Below, one piece after another: positions 1 through 5,923 of a DNA stretch of 5,923 nucleotides. The position numbers were made by a program, and so were the translations under genes. Every line of letters begins with the position of its first letter. Position 1 is the stretch's first letter. This DNA is from a virus (lineage: Duplodnaviria; Heunggongvirae; Uroviricota; Caudoviricetes): positions 1-5,923 of the IMG/VR virus record IMGVR_UViG_2671180460_000007; one strand, given 5' to 3'. The notes under the pieces were generated by a model. That model saw nothing but the letters and a program-made list of their open reading frames with translations, was not told the origin of the DNA and did not search any database.

Positions 1-156
1 TCTCTGGGGACGATTTACCGACGTTTTTATAACGGACATTTTCTGCCTGTAGACCAGGAAAGCGCACAGGTTCTTTCTACACCAATGCAGCAGCCCCAGC
101 CGCGAAGATACAGTAACAAACGAACTGACAGCAGTAAGATGGAGCGTTTCTTTTGA
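1..156 (+). CDS. 3' end of an upstream ORF (partial, runs off the left edge); hypothetical phage protein
   Basis: Frame 1 is open from base 1 to TGA at 154-156 (ends ...[14 protein letters not shown]); the other two + frames hit stops within the first 52 nt. Its stop overlaps the TTG at 153 of the next ORF. No family recognised. Confidence 0.3.
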   Translation, partial: SLGTIYRRFYNGHFLPVDQESAQVLSTPMQQPQPRRYSNKRTDSSKMERFF

Positions 157-410
157 ACAACCAGACAATGACTTTTACCCCTGAACAATTACGTAAACAG
201 GCACAGGAAATGTTGCGACAAGCGGAACAACTGGAAAAAACAGGTGTAACAAAAGATACCATTCGTCGGGATATGGTTCCCGCGCTCAGAGAATTGATGC
301 AGGCGAAACACCGTGCACAAAAAGCGGTGGATGAGCTGGTGGATTGTGTGGCAGAGCTGGAAACCAAAGTTGGAAAGTTTGAAAAACTGGTGCATGAGGT
401 GCTGCGCTGA
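153..410 (+). CDS. Hypothetical small phage protein (80-85 aa), predicted coiled-coil rich, immediately upstream of Q
   Basis: Track ORF 153..410. Start is ambiguous: TTG at 153 has GGAG 8 nt upstream; the first ATG is at 168 with no clear SD. Protein is rich in E/K/R/Q/L heptad-like stretches ([19 protein letters not shown]...). Stop TGA 408-410 overlaps the ATG of the next gene (TGATG). Confidence 0.55.
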
Positions 411-793
411 TGCGTGATATTCAGATGGTTCTTGAGCGTTGGGGAGCGTGGGTGGCAAATAATCATGAGGATGTTACCTGGTCATCGATTGCAGCCGGAT
501 TCAAGGGGCTTATTCCTTCAAAGGTTAAATCGCGACCGCAATGTTGTGACGATGATGCGATGGTTATTTGTGGTTGCATGGCTCGTCTGAAAAAGAGCAA
601 CAATGACTTGCATGATTTGCTGGTGGATTATTACGTTTGGGGCATGACGTTTATGAGGCTGGCGCAGAAGCATAATTGCTCTGATGGATATATCGGGAAA
701 AGGTTACAGAAAGCAGAGGGAATAATCGAAGGTATGTTAATGGCATTAGACATTTGCTTAGAGATGGATATTGATGTTACTAAGCTTAATTAA
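410..793 (+). CDS. Late-gene antitermination protein Q (phage 82 / DLP12 QuuD-like family)
   Basis: 127-aa ORF starting [14 protein letters not shown] with a Cys cluster ([12 protein letters not shown]) consistent with a zinc-binding Q antiterminator; size and N-terminus match my recollection of the DLP12 QuuD / 82-type Q family. ATG overlaps the upstream stop; stop TAA at 791-793. Confidence 0.8.
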
Positions 794-925
794 TACGATT
801 ATTTTTTAATAAAAAACGGGGCGTAAAAACACCCCCAAGATAAAGGGTAATATATAACAGAAAGTTTAGATAGTAAGAAGCAGGGCTCTAATGCTTCTTA
901 AAGAAGTGGCTTGAGGGAGCCACTT

Positions 926-958
926 ATATGCTGAGAAGATAAAACCTTCTCAGCATAT
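926..958. terminator. Perfect 13-bp stem / 7-nt loop hairpin between the convergent Q and porin genes; probable (bidirectional) terminator
   Basis: atatgctgagaag (926-938), loop ataaaac, cttctcagcatat (946-958) is an exact reverse complement; followed on + strand by cctttatt. Two further hairpins lie just upstream (874-900, 9-bp stem; 904-925, 7-bp stem). Confidence 0.5.
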
Positions 959-973
959 CCTTTATTAACCAGA

Positions 974-2077
974 TTAGAACTGGTATACCATACCTACAGC
1001 AACGATATCGTCAGTGTTTACACCAAGAGCTTTAGTAAAGTCATTTTTGTCAAGCAGGTTGATTTTGTAATCAACGAAGGTAGACATATTTTTGTTGAAA
1101 TAATAAGTTGCGCCAACATCAACATATTTGACTAAATCCTGGTCACCAAAAATGCCAAGATCTTTACCTTTTGATTGCAGATAAGCAACAGACGGACGCA
1201 GACCGAAATCGAACTGATATTGTGCAACAGCTTCGAAGTTTTGTGCTTTATTAGCCACAAAGTAATCTGCGAATTTAGTCATATTCTGGGTTTCTGAATA
1301 GGTTGTTGCCAGATAAACGTTGTTTGCGTCGTATTTCAGACCTGCAGCCCAGACTTCTGCATTTTCGCCGGAAGCAAATACTCCTGGGAGAAGTTTACCC
1401 AATTTGACTTGAGTGTCGGTACGATCAGATTTCGCATACGTTGCACCAATGCCGAAACCTTCGTATTCATAGGTCGCAGAGAAACCAAAACCATCGCCAT
1501 TGCCTTTGGTGTAGTTATCTAAGCTACTACGATCATGATTATTCTTACCCTGGTACTGTGCAGCAAAATTCAGACCATCAACCAGACCAAAGAAGTCGTT
1601 GTTACGATAAGTTGCAACACCAGTGGTACGACCAGTCATGAATACATCTGTTTGGGTCCAGGTATCTCCACCGAATTCTGGCAGGACGTCAGTCCATGCA
1701 CCGATATCGTATGCTACACCGTAGTTACGACCGTAATCGACGGAGCCGTAGTCACCGAATTTAAGCCCTGCAAATGCAAGACGGGTTTTATCTTTGGCTG
1801 CTCCCTGTTCTTCAGTACGGTTTCCTTTGAATTCATATTCCCACTGACCGAAACCAGTCAGTTGATCGTTGATCTGAGTTTCGCCTTTGAAACCCAGACG
1901 AGCATAAGTTGTGTCGCCATCATTTGCATCGTTAGAGGAGAAGTAGTGCTTAGCATTAACTTTTCCGTACAGATCCAACTTGTTGCTGTCTTTATTATAA
2001 ATCTCTGCTGCCTGAGCAGACATCGCCATCAGTACTGATGCAGCCACAGCAGAAATTGCCACCGTTAATTTTTTCAT
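974..2077 (-). CDS. nmpC: General diffusion porin of the OmpC/OmpF family, prophage-borne NmpC / Lc / OmpD type
   Basis: Signal peptide [23 protein letters not shown] followed by [24 protein letters not shown]..., Gly/Tyr/Asp-rich beta-barrel composition and C-terminal ...VGMVYQF aromatic terminus, all hallmarks of enterobacterial 16-strand porins. The track start at 2080 is GTG; the adjacent ATG at 2077 with AGGG about 6 nt upstream is the more likely start. Stop TAA at 974-976 (minus). Confidence 0.9.
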
Positions 2078-2080
2078 CAC

Positions 2081-2584
2081 GAACCCTTTTTTTTGAACTA
2101 TTTTTAAAAAATGATGTCACTGCGCGATAAATATTCATCTAATCAATGTGGTTATTTCAAGAGTCAAGTTTAATTTAGTGATTGATAATATGATCAAGAT
2201 CTCATTTATGCGCGTTGGTATAATTTGTTGATATTTTTGTGTAATGCGGAATTTAATTAATGAAATACATTATTTACTCATTTTTCATTGAAAAATAACA
2301 ATGATGTATTTGATGTAATATGTGTTATTCGTATGTTTTGTTTTGTTATGTTGCATTAACATTTGAGTGGCGTATTTGTGGTTTACGTACGTAAAAATTC
2401 AATTATGATGTTAAGAGTGGTTGCTTCGACTCCTTCCTTAAAACCGCCGTCGGGCTGTTTTTTGTACCCGAAAAACGGCACAGGACGTTAAACGTGCTGG
2501 TGGTTGCGAATACTGGTCTTTCAGCTTGCTGGCTTTTTCGACAAGAGTTATTGGTATGTCACGTTAACCAGAAAGGAAAAAGAC
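2081..2584. promoter_or_regulatory. About 500-bp AT-rich intergenic region upstream of the porin gene and of the divergent small ORF; presumed porin promoter/regulatory region
   Basis: Very AT-rich, ORF-free stretch directly 5' of the minus-strand porin start. Porin genes of this family carry long AT-rich upstream regions with regulator sites (established knowledge); no individual binding site could be pinned by eye. Confidence 0.4.
2216..2224 (+). promoter_or_regulatory. Candidate extended -10 promoter element (TGgTATAAT) on the + strand, divergent from the porin gene
   Basis: ttGGTATAAT at 2215-2224 gives a perfect TATAAT hexamer (2219-2224) with TG at 2216-2217; no good -35, which extended -10 promoters do not need. 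Would transcribe rightwards toward the small ORF at 2585. Confidence 0.25.
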
Positions 2585-2782
2585 ATGCTAAAACAGCAGG
2601 ATATGACCGAAACTGCCAGAGTGGTGTTTAATGAATTAAGCGTCACCGAACCGGCGACCGTCGGGGAAATTGCGCAGAATACTTACCTTTCACGCGAACG
2701 CTGCCAGTTAATACTGACCCAGCTTGTTATGGCGGGTCTGGCAGATTATCAGTTCGGTTGTTACAGACGCCTTCCGCAGTGA
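2585..2782 (+). CDS. Small (65 aa) putative DNA-binding protein, helix-turn-helix / winged-helix-like
   Basis: Track ORF 2504..2782 begins at TTG; the first ATG is at 2585, with AAGGA (2573-2577) 7 nt upstream, which I take as the start. The segment ATVGEIAQNTYLSRERCQLILTQLVMAGL looks like a helix-turn-helix recognition unit. Lies 150 bp upstream of the methyltransferase gene on the same strand. Confidence 0.5.
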   Translation: MLKQQDMTETARVVFNELSVTEPATVGEIAQNTYLSRERCQLILTQLVMAGLADYQFGCYRRLPQ

Positions 2783-2932
2783 AGGCTTTTTAATTTGTGG
2801 TAATGGGCGGCTGGTGGGTGTTAGCGGCACCTGCCAGCCATCTGCTCATGCGTTGGGGTCACAAGCAAACCTCAGGCCCATCTGCTTTGCGCAAAAGCGG
2901 TATGAGCCTATCAGAGAAGTGCTTATTGATCT

Positions 2933-3997
2933 ATGGCTAATACTGTAAAAATATCCAGTTGTGAGTTAATCAACGCTGATTGCCTGGAATTTATCCGGAC
3001 CTTACCGGAAAACTCTGTCGATCTGATAGTCACAGACCCGCCATACTTTAAAGTGAAGCCCGAGGGCTGGGATAACCAGTGGAAGGGGGACGATGATTAC
3101 CTGAAATGGCTGGCTCAGTGTCTGGCGCAGTTCTGGCGGGTACTGAAACCTGCCGGAAGTCTCTACCTGTTCTGTGGTCATCGCCTGGCATCTGATATCG
3201 AAATCATGATGCGTGAACGCTTTAATGTGCTGAACCACATTATCTGGGCGAAGCCGTCCGGACGCTGGAATGGGTGCAACAAGGAAAGCCTGCGGGCGTA
3301 TTTTCCGGCAACAGAACGCATTCTGTTTGCTGAACATTATCAGGGGCCATACCAGCCAAAAAATGACGGCTATGCAACAAAGGGGCGCGAGCTTAAACAG
3401 CATGTCATGGCCCCGCTGATTTCTTACTTTCGTGATGCGCGCGAATCACTGGGGATAACGTCAAAACAGATAGCAGAAGCCACCGGAAAGAAAAACATGG
3501 CTTCGCACTGGTTTGGTACCAGTCAGTGGCAGTTACCGAATGAGGCCGATTACAGTAAACTGCAGGCGCTGTTTGCACGTGTGGCGGCAGAAAAACACCA
3601 GCGCGGTGAACTGGAGCAGCCACACCACCAGCTGGTCAGCACATACAGCGAACTGAACCGGCAATATGTCAGCCTGCTGGAGGAATACAAATCACTGCGG
3701 CGTTATTTTTCCGTATCGGCTGTCGTTCCTTATACGGATGTCTGGACGCACAAGCCCGTGCAGTATTATCCGGGCAAACATCCCTGTGAAAAACCGGCGG
3801 ATATGTTGCGTCAGATAATTACTGCCAGCAGCCGTCCAGGCGATTTGGTCGCAGATTTTTTTATGGGGTCAGGTTCCACGATAAAAGCGGCACTGTTGCT
3901 GGGACGCAGGGCGATTGGCGTGGAACTGGAAAAAGAACGTTTTGAACAGACCGTCGGTGAAATAATGGAGCAGGCAGAGAAACCAGGTAGTGCATAA
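2933..3997 (+). CDS. DNA methyltransferase, beta-class amino-methyltransferase (N6-adenine type most likely; N4-cytosine not excluded); orphan within this window
   Basis: 354-aa ORF with catalytic motif IV DPPY near the N-terminus (DLIVTDPPYF) and AdoMet-binding motif I FxGxG near the C-terminus (DFFMGSGST). This IV-before-I order is the beta-class permutation; DPPY rather than SPPY favours N6-adenine. No endonuclease-like ORF is adjacent. Confidence 0.88.
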   Translation: MANTVKISSCELINADCLEFIRTLPENSVDLIVTDPPYFKVKPEGWDNQWKGDDDYLKWLAQCLAQFWRVLKPAGSLYLFCGHRLASDIEIMMRERFNVLNHIIWAKPSGRWNGCNKESLRAYFPATERILFAEHYQGPYQPKNDGYATKGRELKQHVMAPLISYFRDARESLGITSKQIAEATGKKNMASHWFGTSQWQLPNEADYSKLQALFARVAAEKHQRGELEQPHHQLVSTYSELNRQYVSLLEEYKSLRRYFSVSAVVPYTDVWTHKPVQYYPGKHPCEKPADMLRQIITASSRPGDLVADFFMGSGSTIKAALLLGRRAIGVELEKERFEQTVGEIMEQAEKPGSA

Positions 3998-4280
3998 TAA
4001 GATAAGAACGGAAAACTTATTATCACGCAGAATGCGCGACGCGAACTAGGCAAGGTGACCGTACTGGCAGTTTCATTGCTCATCTGCCAGTTTTTGACAC
4101 AGGTTGTGTACTGGTTGCGAAAGCACGTGGTTGGATGAGTTCTGCGTTCACATACAGGGTGGTGTGAAGCCAGTTTTTTTCTGTGTATTCAGATGGCGTT
4201 CTGATTTTATGACGAGTTACGTGAACATCAGGGTGTTATGAGTTGGGACGTCATCTTAATGCAACATATTTAATTATGTG

Positions 4281-4379
4281 ATGCCTTATCGGGATAAGGC
4301 ATGATTTCTGGTGTTCTTTGCAATGCAGACATCTCATTTATCAGATAATCATGCTTTATCCCGATGATGCATCAGGCAT
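4281..4379. repeat. Long near-perfect inverted repeat (about 28 paired positions, 31-nt central loop) in the non-coding region between methyltransferase and tRNAs
   Basis: Arm A 4288-4306 (atcgggataaggcatgatt) pairs with arm B 4347-4365 (aatcatgctttatcccgat): 18 Watson-Crick pairs plus one G:T. Extended by tctg (4307-4310) with caga (4342-4345) and by atgcc (4281-4285) with ggcat (4375-4379). Each arm also holds a local 10-bp palindrome (atgccttatc gg gataaggcat at 4281-4302; tgatgcatca at 4365-4374). Confidence 0.55.
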
Positions 4380-4416
4380 TGTCTTATGAGGTTTCATTGT
4401 ACTCTTTTATTTGCGG

Positions 4417-4447
4417 CCCACTGGTTTTTTACTGGTGGGTATTTTTT
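4417..4447 (+). terminator. Candidate rho-independent terminator downstream of the methyltransferase gene
   Basis: cccactgg (4417-4424), loop tttttta, ctggtggg (4432-4439): 8-bp stem including two G:U pairs, followed by tattttttgg. Confidence 0.35.
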
Positions 4448-4519
4448 GGCTTTTTGTGAAATGCTGCAGTAAATAAAATTTTTATTCAAACAAATTTACA
4501 ATTGCGCGAGTAATAAATA

Positions 4520-4547
4520 TTGCATCCGGAATATTTATTAGTATTAT
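4520..4547 (+). promoter_or_regulatory. Candidate sigma70 promoter for the tRNA transcription unit
   Basis: TTGCAT (4520-4525), 16-bp spacer, TATTAT (4542-4547); AT-rich UP-like sequence upstream (aaataaaatttttattcaaacaaattt); predicted start about 60 nt upstream of the first tRNA. Confidence 0.35.
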
Positions 4548-4614
4548 TTCTGCGGTTCCGAGGGGATGGTACGATATGTATCGGGGCATCTCATCTCACG
4601 CCCGAGGAACCAAC

Positions 4615-4690
<76 letters not shown>

Positions 4691-4693
4691 TAT

Positions 4694-4768
<75 letters not shown>

Positions 4769-5033
4769 CAGTAACTAAGGCGAGATTGTTTCAGGCACTG
4801 ATGTAATATAATATATGTGGGGTGTTTTTTTCTGACTCCTTACCACGCCCTGTTCTGTAATGAGTGATATCAGTACAGTTCCAGTGCCACTTTTTTACAA
4901 CACCGGAATAATGCATTATTAGCCAGGATTTTGTTTTTTTCTTCTGCAAATGTATTATCCCGATGTTGTAAACATCGACAAAAACAAAACTGTGATTAGT
5001 CACATACTAAGTCAAGCCCGGAAATACATCCTT

Positions 5034-5059
5034 AACCGCCGCACCAGGCGGTTTTTTTT
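5034..5059 (+). terminator. Strong rho-independent terminator closing the tRNA transcription unit
   Basis: aaccgcc (5034-5040), loop gcacca, ggcggtt (5047-5053): perfect 7-bp stem followed by a run of 8 T (5052-5059). Confidence 0.7.
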
Positions 5060-5233
5060 ATTCCGTTTTTTATGGACCGTTCAGTCGGACCTTTTTCATA
5101 TCCGCGTCACGCCCGGCGCACATCAAAAACCACAGAGCCTTTCAGTGGCGAGCTTACGGGATGGTCAGTGTGACTTTCTCTGTGGGCTGGTCACCCCCGG
5201 GCGGAGGCTCACCCACTAAAAGGAAAAGTAACG

Positions 5234-5659
5234 ATGTTTGGTATTTTCAAAAAGAAAACCCGCAAGGCCATTACTGAAGTGAAGAAGATGGAGAACCGCG
5301 ACGCAGTGGAGGCGACCGTCTGGGGCGCGTATTCCATAGCATTCGCCGACGGCACCTGTGATGCGAAAGAAATCGCTGTGCTGGAGAAAACCATTGCAGC
5401 ACTTCCTGCTTTTGCGCCGTTCTCGGGTGAGATTGCACAAATGAGTGCAAATATCCGCGCCCGTTATGAAGCGTCACCTCGTAGTGCGAATGCTCAGGCT
5501 TTGCGTGAACTGGCTGATGTGGCAGGAACCACCGAAGCGGTTGATGTGCTGTGCCTGTGTCTTGATATTGCTGACCAGGATGGCATTGGTCCGGATGAAG
5601 AAGCACAGCTCAAGAAAATTGCTCAGGCGCTGCAGTTGCCGCTGGAGCAGTACCTGTGA
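5234..5659 (+). CDS. TerB-fold (tellurite-resistance TerB-like) small soluble protein, 141 aa
   Basis: Good SD (AAGGAAAAG) 8 nt before ATG. Two copies of the TerB-type signature: AFADGTCDAKEIAVLEKTIAAL and LDIADQDGIGPDEEAQLKKIAQAL (acidic ADG/DQDG motif followed by E and an amphipathic helix). No predicted transmembrane segment. Confidence 0.75.
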   Translation: MFGIFKKKTRKAITEVKKMENRDAVEATVWGAYSIAFADGTCDAKEIAVLEKTIAALPAFAPFSGEIAQMSANIRARYEASPRSANAQALRELADVAGTTEAVDVLCLCLDIADQDGIGPDEEAQLKKIAQALQLPLEQYL

Positions 5660-5805
5660 AAAGTGCGCGCCTTGTGCTGGCTGCCATCCTGCTGTTTCTG
5701 GTGGTGGTGGATTTCACCGGACGGCTGATGTCGGTGCTGGCAGATGGTGTGCTGGTGGCGATGGCGCTGGTCGTGCTCCGGCCTTTACTGCGTAAATCTG
5801 AATAG
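5656..5805 (+). CDS. Small hydrophobic ORF (49 aa, two predicted membrane-spanning segments), translationally coupled to the TerB-like gene; not in the supplied ORF track
   Basis: GTG at 5656 overlaps the TerB-like stop (cTGTGAaa; GTG 5656-5658, TGA 5657-5659); GGAG at 5644-5647 lies 8 nt upstream. Translation VKSARLVLAAILLFLVVVDFTGRLMSVLADGVLVAMALVVLRPLLRKSE*: basic N-terminus, two hydrophobic stretches, basic C-terminus. Stop TAG at 5803-5805. In this frame the nearest upstream stop is 5596-5598 and GTG 5656 is the first plausible start. Confidence 0.4.
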   Translation: MKSARLVLAAILLFLVVVDFTGRLMSVLADGVLVAMALVVLRPLLRKSE

Positions 5806-5855
5806 CACCACACAAAAGGTATCTGCGGGTGCCTTTGACGGGGTGTTTTTTTACG

Positions 5856-5876
5856 GGCCGACAGTGGCCTTTTTTT
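5856..5876 (+). terminator. Weak terminator-like hairpin plus T-run after the small hydrophobic ORF
   Basis: ggcc (5856-5859), loop gacagt, ggcc (5866-5869), followed by tttttttattt. The stem is only 4-5 bp, so this would be leaky at best. Confidence 0.25.
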
Positions 5877-5894
5877 ATTTACAGGAGAAAAAGT

Positions 5895-5923
5895 ATGTCT
5901 GAACCCTTATCCGGTTCCGGCAC
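5895..5923 (+). CDS. 5' end of a downstream gene (partial, runs off the right edge); product unknown
   Basis: ATG at 5895 preceded by a strong SD (AGGAG at 5883-5887, 7-nt spacing); reads MSEPLSGSG... to the window end. Not recognisable as a lambda- or 21-type holin or endolysin N-terminus. Confidence 0.4.

Follow-up and report, generated by a model that had tools for sequence, protein, structure and literature searches.

PF06530 is the Pfam family of the Q21/Q933W type of antiterminator, and in phage 21 the Q-binding element (QBE) is located within -40 to -1 (bioRxiv 10.1101/651190); the qut site is found partly between the -35 and -10 elements of the late promoter, pR' (PMC6266700). In cassettes of the Q21/Q933W type, such as those of phage 21, 933W, and JLK-2012, a Q gene of this family is followed by a compact promoter and terminator (tR'), and tRNA genes and cargo genes lie between tR' and the lysis genes. 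DLP12 (qsr') and PA-2/434B have the layout quuD - nmpC/lc - essD, in which a porin gene follows Q. The DNA analyzed in this study, referred to here as the window (5,923 nucleotides (nt), positions 1 to 5,923 of the IMG/VR virus record IMGVR_UViG_2671180460_000007), is the Q-to-holin late-control interval of a phiP27-like lambdoid prophage, which is mosaic and toxin-less and has a DLP12-type porin aboard (Table 1). Our sequence comparisons make it quite probable that this late-control region consists of two insertion slots around one Q-dependent promoter, with the porin gene located between Q and pR'.

The phage closest to the window is the Stx2e phage phiP27, and the segments common to both are 1-504, 2393-3954, and 5711-5923. 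The late-control region of phiP27 (L19-L28) has the same helicase gene and small open reading frame (ORF), the same first 32 codons of Q, the same pR' cassette apart from the repeat described below, the same helix-turn-helix (HTH) and methylase genes (100% and 91% amino acid (aa) identity, respectively), tRNA genes between the methylase gene and the cargo slot, and the same pre-holin junction with a holin of the same type. In contrast, the Q of phiP27 is 48% identical beyond codon 32, a GIY-YIG nuclease gene on the + strand takes the place of the porin gene between Q and pR', the tRNAs are those for Ile and Arg instead of Thr and Gly, and stx2e is located where the window has the genes for a TerB-domain protein and a DUF3927 membrane peptide. 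A preliminary description of this DNA, made from the sequence alone, had drawn a parallel with toxin-converting lambdoid phages but without a toxin, and this parallel was borne out: ORFs for stx and elt are absent from the window, and the toxin slot is filled by TerB/DUF3927. With DLP12 and PA-2/434B, the window shares the Q-porin layout, the Q subfamily (89% aa identity), the porin (93% aa identity, NmpC type), the structured 3' untranslated region (UTR) of the porin gene, and a pR' cassette after the porin gene. In DLP12-type phages, however, there is no HTH, methylase, tRNA, or TerB gene, and beyond Q and the porin the similarity of 434B/DLP12-type phages to the window consists of one 89-nt block (2375-2463), which in those phages precedes the holin gene S by about 120 nt; in K-12 DLP12, furthermore, nmpC is interrupted by IS5. 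Compared with the Q21/Q933W cassettes, the candidate Q-binding element of the window is an inverted instead of a direct repeat, and the cassette is 1.6 kb away from Q.

The alignment with related prophages that had been proposed as a check was carried out pairwise against 12 loci, and it yielded exchangeable modules with sharp edges and a breakpoint that recurs at 3965, at the 3' end of the methylase gene. The closest complete relative in E. coli is the EC11 prophage, which matches 1-3965 at 97% and 5090-5923 at 93%, and the entire window was not found in any one complete E. coli genome. In EC11 (L002 17690-21381), the genes for the terminase large subunit and the portal protein are annotated as frameshifted, which indicates either a defective prophage or indel errors in the assembly. 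In addition, 110 loci encoding a relative of the window Q were retrieved, and the repeat was counted over 113 Q-selected loci; in a reverse selection, viral contigs were scanned by the repeat motif alone, which gave 95 informative loci. One of the loci (L032, JARKOR010000135.1) is a 2.1-kb contig binned in a 'Candidatus Nanosynbacter' metagenome-assembled genome, and it encodes a Q of the window type (79% identity); most likely, it is a mis-binned fragment of an enterobacterial prophage.

The candidate late promoter, of the sigma-70 type, is located downstream of the porin module. The promoter scan identified TTTACG-16-TATGAT, with a 9/12 match and a -10 element of the form TAnnnT, and the -35 and the TAnnnT -10 elements are kept in 39 distinct variants of the cassette. 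The -35 element is part of the perfect inverted repeat TTTACGTACGTAAA. The -10 element is followed by the invariant sequence TGTTAAGAGTGG, in which AAGAGT is a weak -10-like candidate for a sigma-dependent pause element, and in the cassette alignment (A1) a G+C hairpin with a T-run is found about 45-60 nt downstream. Because the known qut and QBE positions overlap the promoter, we place pR' at 2382-2416, as predicted from the sequence, and consider it likely that Q binds at the inverted repeat.

The evidence for this assignment is the association of the cassette with one subfamily of Q. The palindrome TTTACGTACGTAAA was found exactly once, on the strand of Q, in 94 of the 113 Q-selected loci, and 11 further loci contain the variant TTTACGATCGTAAA, also a perfect palindrome, in which only the self-complementary center is changed; the other loci either are on truncated contigs or have Qs with at most 48% identity. 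By chance, 0.03 sites would be expected in the window, compared with the one found. In Trabulsiella, Citrobacter, Pantoea, Xenorhabdus, and Providencia, 3-65 nt separate the palindrome from the stop codon of Q upstream of it, and in loci of E. coli and Shigella flexneri (L007/L008) and of Citrobacter pasteurii (L013), from which the porin gene is absent, the cassette block is found about 50 nt past the Q stop codon. When loci were selected by the motif instead, this Q was found upstream on the same strand in 95 of the 95 informative loci, with a gap between Q and the motif of 43 nt in six, about 1,055 nt in eight (with a CPBP/Abi-like membrane protein), and 1.5-2.4 kb in 81 (with a porin). In phiP27, in which Q diverges beyond codon 32, the sequence at the position of the palindrome is CTTGCGGAATTCCAAAAA, and the cassette is otherwise retained. 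A search for relatives of the phiP27-type Q, as a second pairing of a Q with its site, gave only three loci, in all of which Q is identical. In the sequences compared, from Escherichia to Xenorhabdus, no informative locus has this Q subfamily without the cassette.

The cassette separates two slots with different occupants. The slot between Q and pR' contains the porin gene in the window and DLP12, the GIY-YIG nuclease gene in phiP27, and a gene for a CPBP-like protein in others, and the slot between pR'-tR' and the holin gene contains tRNA genes, stx2e, TerB/DUF3927, and, in JLK-2012, yjhS. Two of the motif-selected loci (L211 and L214) have an insert of about 1 kb between Q and pR' that encodes a polytopic membrane protein with the EExxxR and FxxxH motifs (CPBP/Abi-like), which is a third alternative occupant. 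The lysis and late genes are behind the cassette on the same strand, with holin, endolysin, and terminase genes following in EC11 and phiP27. The preliminary description had placed nmpC/lc and the tRNA and stx genes in a single slot, which did not hold, as the porin gene lies between Q and pR', and tRNAs, toxins, and TerB lie between pR'-tR' and the holin gene.

In lambda, 21, 82, and 933W, pR' closely follows Q, and the layout originally drawn for this DNA, in which the late promoter was not pinned, likewise implied a pR' directly after Q in 794-973, with transcription running antisense through the porin gene and on through the + strand modules. A strong + strand hairpin at 926-958 favors that layout. 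However, this hairpin is poor in T-run, and the promoter scan detected no + strand promoter-like site in 794-973 (there was also none upstream of the holin gene, in 5794-5894). Moreover, 794-973 is not a neutral boundary spacer but the 3' UTR of the porin mRNA, collinear with that of DLP12, and it is absent in porin-less relatives, in which the cassette corresponding to 2382-2465 is located 3-65 nt after Q. For these reasons, we consider a pR' in 794-973 highly improbable. It could also be argued that 2382-2465 does contain a promoter, but that the repeat is the operator of another dimeric regulator or part of the -35 or UP element context, with Q acting elsewhere or merely being linked. Perfect palindromes are typical of the operators of dimeric repressors, the QBE of Q21 is a direct repeat, and an HTH gene is located just downstream. 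Nevertheless, 79 motif-selected loci without the HTH and methylase genes keep the repeat, and thus the HTH protein is not its dedicated partner; furthermore, the pairing of the repeat with Q persists across insertions of 1-2.4 kb and across genera while the flanking non-coding DNA diverges, and in phiP27 the repeat changes exactly where Q changes. An operator for another regulator therefore appears unlikely to us.

According to a third explanation, the region is a decaying remnant, and its modules are independent leftovers or morons without functional coupling to Q. The degraded tR' and possible leader hairpin in the window lineage, the frameshifts in the terminase and portal genes of EC11, the cryptic state of DLP12, which has the same Q and porin, and the import of the tRNA leader from a phage with a different Q-like gene are consistent with decay. 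In contrast, every ORF of the window is unbroken and of full length when compared with its family, Q spans the entire PF06530 model (positions 1-118 of 118), neither the promoter hexamers nor the repeat nor the invariant start region is damaged, and strong terminators remain between pR' and the holin gene. A remnant of this kind thus seems very unlikely. The assignment of the late promoter to 2382-2416 has weaknesses of its own. Adjacent DNA is co-inherited, and therefore the association of the cassette with Q alone is no proof of function. The support for the cassette is at the sequence level, with a -35/-10 match of only 9/12, and nothing in the initial transcribed region clearly stands out as a -10-like pause element, AAGAGT being a guess. 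The characterized Q21 binds a direct, not an inverted, repeat (bioRxiv 10.1101/651190), and the window Q is only distantly related to it, the match (E 2.7e-8) extending over 79 residues only. In the window lineage, the degraded tR' stem and possible leader hairpin may mean that the cassette is partly decayed or leaky, and EC11, with its frameshifted genes, is the closest complete relative. These points notwithstanding, two slots around a promoter at 2382-2416 remain our preferred reading.

From the gene identities, the module boundaries, the strict association of the cassette with Q, and the terminator structures, we infer promoter activity, Q binding, pausing, and read-through as follows. Q would load at pR' via the inverted repeat, and RNA polymerase would become terminator-resistant. 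A single rightward transcript from pR' would then cross five terminator-like sites (tR', T1, T2, T3, and T4) and would contain, in this order, the HTH gene, the M.EcoGII-type methylase gene, the two rare-codon tRNA genes, which have a promoter-like site of their own as well, TerB/DUF3927, and the holin gene. Joint expression of the toxic methylase, TerB/DUF3927, and the lysis genes would in this way begin only after induction. The + strand genes from 2585 to the holin gene are co-oriented behind a series of terminators, and thus coupling by Q-dependent antitermination is the natural reading. The porin module, on the other hand, would be a conversion unit that is expressed in the lysogen, is transcribed towards Q, and stays outside the late transcript. 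Given the location of this module between Q and pR', polymerase modified by Q is not expected to traverse 974-2077, and antisense RNA over the porin gene or read-through past 958 would be predicted to come only from early (pR-derived) transcripts that pass Q. The earlier proposal that all + strand cargo is coupled to the lytic switch appears right in outline downstream of 2416, but the transcription path that it gave for the porin gene is probably wrong: with the cassette downstream of this gene, the Q-dependent antisense transcription expected across 974-2077 found no support. Terminator-like sites are frequent in the window as a whole, 15 compared with 6.3 +/- 2.5 expected.

The terminator of the cassette differs among the relatives. 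In the relatives tR' folds at -12 to -19 kcal/mol, and its stem sequences differ between genera while the stem and the T-run are kept; in the window, there are three G-C pairs left (-8.6 kcal/mol, z -0.5). The reduced stem is found in one lineage, which consists of the window, EC11, L034, and L037-L039, whereas in L035 and L036 this promoter variant is combined with an undamaged terminator. In the same six sequences, the leader segment GCCACACAG is altered to GACTCCTTC (window 2429-2465). A candidate hairpin of the leader RNA (+2 to +17), for which 85% of cells pair, one pair covaries, and the controls do not decide the matter, is also broken in this lineage. Since the tR' stem is degraded, transcription from pR' in lysogens may extend into the HTH gene as far as T1, which may serve in place of tR'. 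T1 is conserved in Escherichia-type units, where it has a T-run, and in Xenorhabdus another hairpin occupies this place. The leader that follows tR' (window 2458-2575, TTTTTTGTACCCGAAAAACGGCACAGGACGTTAAACG...GTTATTGGTATGTCA) recurs past the terminator of a DUF1133-type Q-like gene in E. coli C5 (L117, about 4880-5010); thus it is common to phages with different antiterminators, and it may act as a substrate for recombination or have a function as a leader.

The HTH and methylase genes had been regarded as a cargo unit, a view that the comparisons do not support. The pair lies directly behind Q/pR' in Xenorhabdus too (41-45% identity for the HTH protein and 65-67% for the methylase), and this linkage from Escherichia as far as Xenorhabdus indicates an old part of the late operon and not cargo. 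No promoter other than pR' was found for the pair, which does not qualify as a moron. The window methylase is identical to M.EcoGII at 297 of 347 positions (86%) over its full length, with an N-terminal DPPY motif, an FMGSGS motif (FxGxG, C-terminal), the order of the beta class, and a prophage setting, as for M.EcoGII of the E. coli O104:H4 C227-11 prophage. It is an M.EcoGII orthologue by sequence, with the non-specific adenine methylation predicted for this family. In the available text of its description, M.EcoGII is a non-specific adenine methylase of an O104:H4 prophage that is deleterious if expressed constitutively and is silent in the lysogen, and that text does not describe a position behind pR'/tR' with an HTH partner such as the one found here (PMC5778455). 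The HTH-methylase pair is best read as Q-gated protection of phage DNA. An AlphaFold model of the HTH protein from its single sequence had a pLDDT (predicted local distance difference test) value of 53.

The porin module extends from about 794 to 2374 (about 1.6 kb). Its product scores above the cutoff of the NCBIfam OmpC subfamily, and the homology of its upstream region to DLP12-type loci extends to about 2171-2207. The module is absent in L007, L008, L013, and others and is therefore an indel, and with its own AT-rich regulatory region and terminator it has the features of a moron. The minus-strand fold of the 3' UTR is strong (-60.6 kcal/mol, z -8.5), its terminator ends about 20 nt from the Q stop codon, and in the alignment with the nmpC 3' UTR of K-12 DLP12 (A4) the column identity is 87% and the first hairpin is compensated. 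The DLP12 nmpC 3' UTR reportedly encodes IpeX (Castillo-Keller et al. 2006). IpeX is known from the literature as a repressor of OmpC and OmpF, and no ipeX is present among the K-12 features listed. A published reporter (PMC7918800) was considered as an experimental anchor for the DLP12 late promoter and was dropped: when its primers were mapped, the forward primer fell in the porin signal-peptide region, the reverse primer had no match in the strain used, and the implied '+1' near the porin start probably belongs to another promoter.

Upstream of Q, the 85-aa ORF ends in a stop codon that overlaps the start codon of Q (TGATG, 407-412), and this suggests that Q is translationally coupled to the upstream gene.

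The segment 4040-5127 is undivided in E. coli 52F4, where a DUF1133 Q-like gene and the holin gene flank it. We rejected the possibility of a second, imported pR' in its leader; a promoter-like stretch and a terminator are present in the first ~120 nt after the DUF1133 gene of 52F4 and C5, and this stretch is missing from the window. The hairpin at 4062-4095 may be a further terminator. The near-perfect hairpin upstream of T2 and T2 together form an indel relative to E. coli C5, and this hairpin was rejected as a dispersed miniature inverted-repeat transposable element since it is single copy and is found in 3 of 5,426 complete E. coli genomes. No viral contig matched an exact 30-mer of the tRNA leader. 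The two tRNAs have Rfam scores of 66.9 and 64.9 bits, and the pair (4602-4774) moves independently in the comparison with the 12 loci. The Rfam hits to mir-983, MIR4387, and Plastid-ycf2 were dismissed because they are far below the gathering scores and cover only hairpins or tRNA. Counts of the ACA, GGA, and GGG codons in the window ORFs were based on 38 Thr and 44 Gly codons, too few to judge. In its minimal form, the region consists of Q, the cassette, four tRNA genes, and the holin gene (L007); these tRNA genes come after the cassette within 48 nt and can only belong to the late transcript. The long hairpin downstream of tRNA-Gly has the motif ATG(C/T)(T/A)TTATCCCGATG in common with the first one (4281/4351/4950), and it may contain a recombination breakpoint, because the homology to L007 and L114 stops in its loop (4917-4919). 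In E. coli C5 (L117, NZ_CP010122.1 3780345-3790984), two late regions are arranged head to head at tRNA-Gly, in the order DUF1133-leader-tRNA-Thr/Gly and then inverted tRNA-Gly-methylase-HTH-porin-Q, as if recombination at the tRNA genes had caused an inversion between two prophages.

TerB/DUF3927 is a clean indel (5128-5793), and in 52F4 position 5127 joins 5794 directly. The promoter scan revealed no promoter-like site in 5060-5233, and T4 belongs to the junction, whose conservation extends to loci from which this cassette is absent. Without a promoter or terminator of its own, TerB/DUF3927 does not qualify as a moron and should be expressed together with the lysis genes. The junction (5794-5923) is common to phiP27, EC11, 52F4, L036, L040, L101, and L114, and T4 (hairpin 5855-5870, -8.3 kcal/mol, z -1.5) is weaker than T2 and T3. 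Downstream of stx2e, phiP27 (L001 9591-9685, corresponding to window 5711-5805) still has the 3'-terminal third of the DUF3927 gene, which suggests that stx2e replaced TerB/DUF3927 in an ancestor. As in TciA/TciB of phage P1 and JLK-2012, a TerB protein gene is followed by an overlapping gene for a DUF3927 membrane peptide, located, as in JLK-2012, downstream of Q and tRNAs and upstream of the lysis genes; the TerB protein is only 43% identical to TciA of JLK-2012. The names TciA and TciB are given by homology. PADLOC gave no defense-system match for TerB, DUF3927, or the porin, and no relative of TerB was found in PDB.

As for the preliminary description as a whole, its inventory of genes and tRNAs was confirmed by the ORF list, the tRNA scan, and family searches; its three named terminators (T2, T3, and T4) were confirmed as hairpins with T-runs, as was the structured non-coding DNA between units (folds at 794-973, 4279-4374, and 4894-4972). 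Its statement that every unit comes with a promoter and/or terminator of its own applies only in part, since TerB/DUF3927 has neither and the HTH-methylase pair has only pR' as a promoter.

Table 1. Sequence features of the window, with the evidence for each assignment
Feature	Position	Strand	Evidence and remarks
Replicative DNA helicase gene, 3' end	1-156	+	Homology to the annotated helicases of EC11 and phiP27, which end here
85-aa ORF	153-410	+	PHROG 2565, E 4e-32; hypothetical in EC11 and phiP27
Antiterminator Q, Q21/Q933W family	410-793	+	PF06530, E 1.1e-53; PHROG 79; PDB Q21 (6jnx/6p18), E 2.7e-8
Structured porin mRNA 3' UTR	794-973	-	Three hairpins and intrinsic terminator with T-run at 835-818; alignment A4, fold, terminator scan
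Porin gene, OmpC/NmpC/Lc type, convergent with Q	974-2077/2080	-	Porin_1, E 8e-152
Porin upstream regulatory region, right end of module	2081-2374	-	Composition; AT-rich (26% GC)
Perfect 14-bp inverted repeat TTTACGTACGTAAA (TTTACG-TA-CGTAAA), candidate Q-binding element	2382-2395	+	Includes -35 TTTACG (2382-2387)
-10 TATGAT (2404-2409), then invariant TGTTAAGAGTGGT	2404-2422	+	Promoter scan, alignments A1 and A3; predicted start about 2416
tR' position, hairpin and T6, stem degraded	2440-2465	+	Folds of relatives; about 47 nt downstream
HTH protein gene, 65 aa	2585-2782	+	PHROG 331, weak TrmB match
T1, hairpin across HTH stop codon, then T5	2769-2791	+	-8.9 kcal/mol
M.EcoGII-family beta-class adenine DNA methyltransferase gene, N6/N4, 354 aa	2933-3997	+	PF01555
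tRNA leader	4040-4614	+	One block with 52F4 and C5, there behind DUF1133 Q-like gene
Hairpin, 8-bp stem, 13-nt loop, then T5	4062-4095	+	-12 kcal/mol, z -2.5; conserved in 52F4 and C5
96-nt near-perfect hairpin, about 38 bp	4279-4374	+	-50 kcal/mol, z -7.3; immediately upstream of T2
Terminator T2	4416-4447 (hairpin 4416-4440)	+	-15.3 kcal/mol, z -3.6
Conserved promoter-like TTGCAT-16-TATTAT	4519-4546	+	Before tRNAs
tRNA-Thr(UGU)	4615-4690	+	ARAGORN
tRNA-Gly(UCC)	4694-4768	+	ARAGORN
Second long hairpin	4894-4972	+	-24.7 kcal/mol, z -4.6
Terminator T3	5034-5053 and T8, element to 5061	+	-12.4 kcal/mol, z -4.2
TerB-domain gene	5234-5659	+	PF05099, PHROG 632
DUF3927 membrane peptide gene, 49 aa, overlaps TerB	5656-5805	+	PF13064, PHROG 1470
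Pre-holin junction; T4 5855-5877, holin start 5895	5794-5923	+	Holin start by homology to the holins annotated in EC11 and phiP27

The outcome of this analysis is a map of, and a sequence signature for, the late promoter of the DLP12/phiP27-type Q subfamily. It does not overturn the current understanding of lambdoid phages. A tentative extension, which we regard as possible though somewhat doubtful, is that this Q subfamily (in Escherichia, Citrobacter, Pantoea, Trabulsiella, Xenorhabdus, Providencia, and Morganella) is recruited via a symmetric TTTACG-NN-CGTAAA site overlapping the -35 element, with a loading geometry unlike those of the direct-repeat QBE of Q21 and the lambda QBE, that insertion of 1-2.4 kb of foreign DNA between the site and Q is tolerated, and that pR' of the window is leaky into the HTH gene, and possibly the methylase gene, in lysogens. 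The silence of M.EcoGII-type methylases in lysogens would be explained by the position of the methylase gene as the first long ORF behind pR'/tR'. Furthermore, the signature separates the genes under Q control (methylase, tRNAs, toxins, TerB, and lysis genes) from the conversion porin, which lies outside, and it should thus help to predict the prophage cargo that is induced along with the lytic cycle, such as Stx2e of phiP27-like phages, which is in the Q-controlled slot, with the porin outside it.

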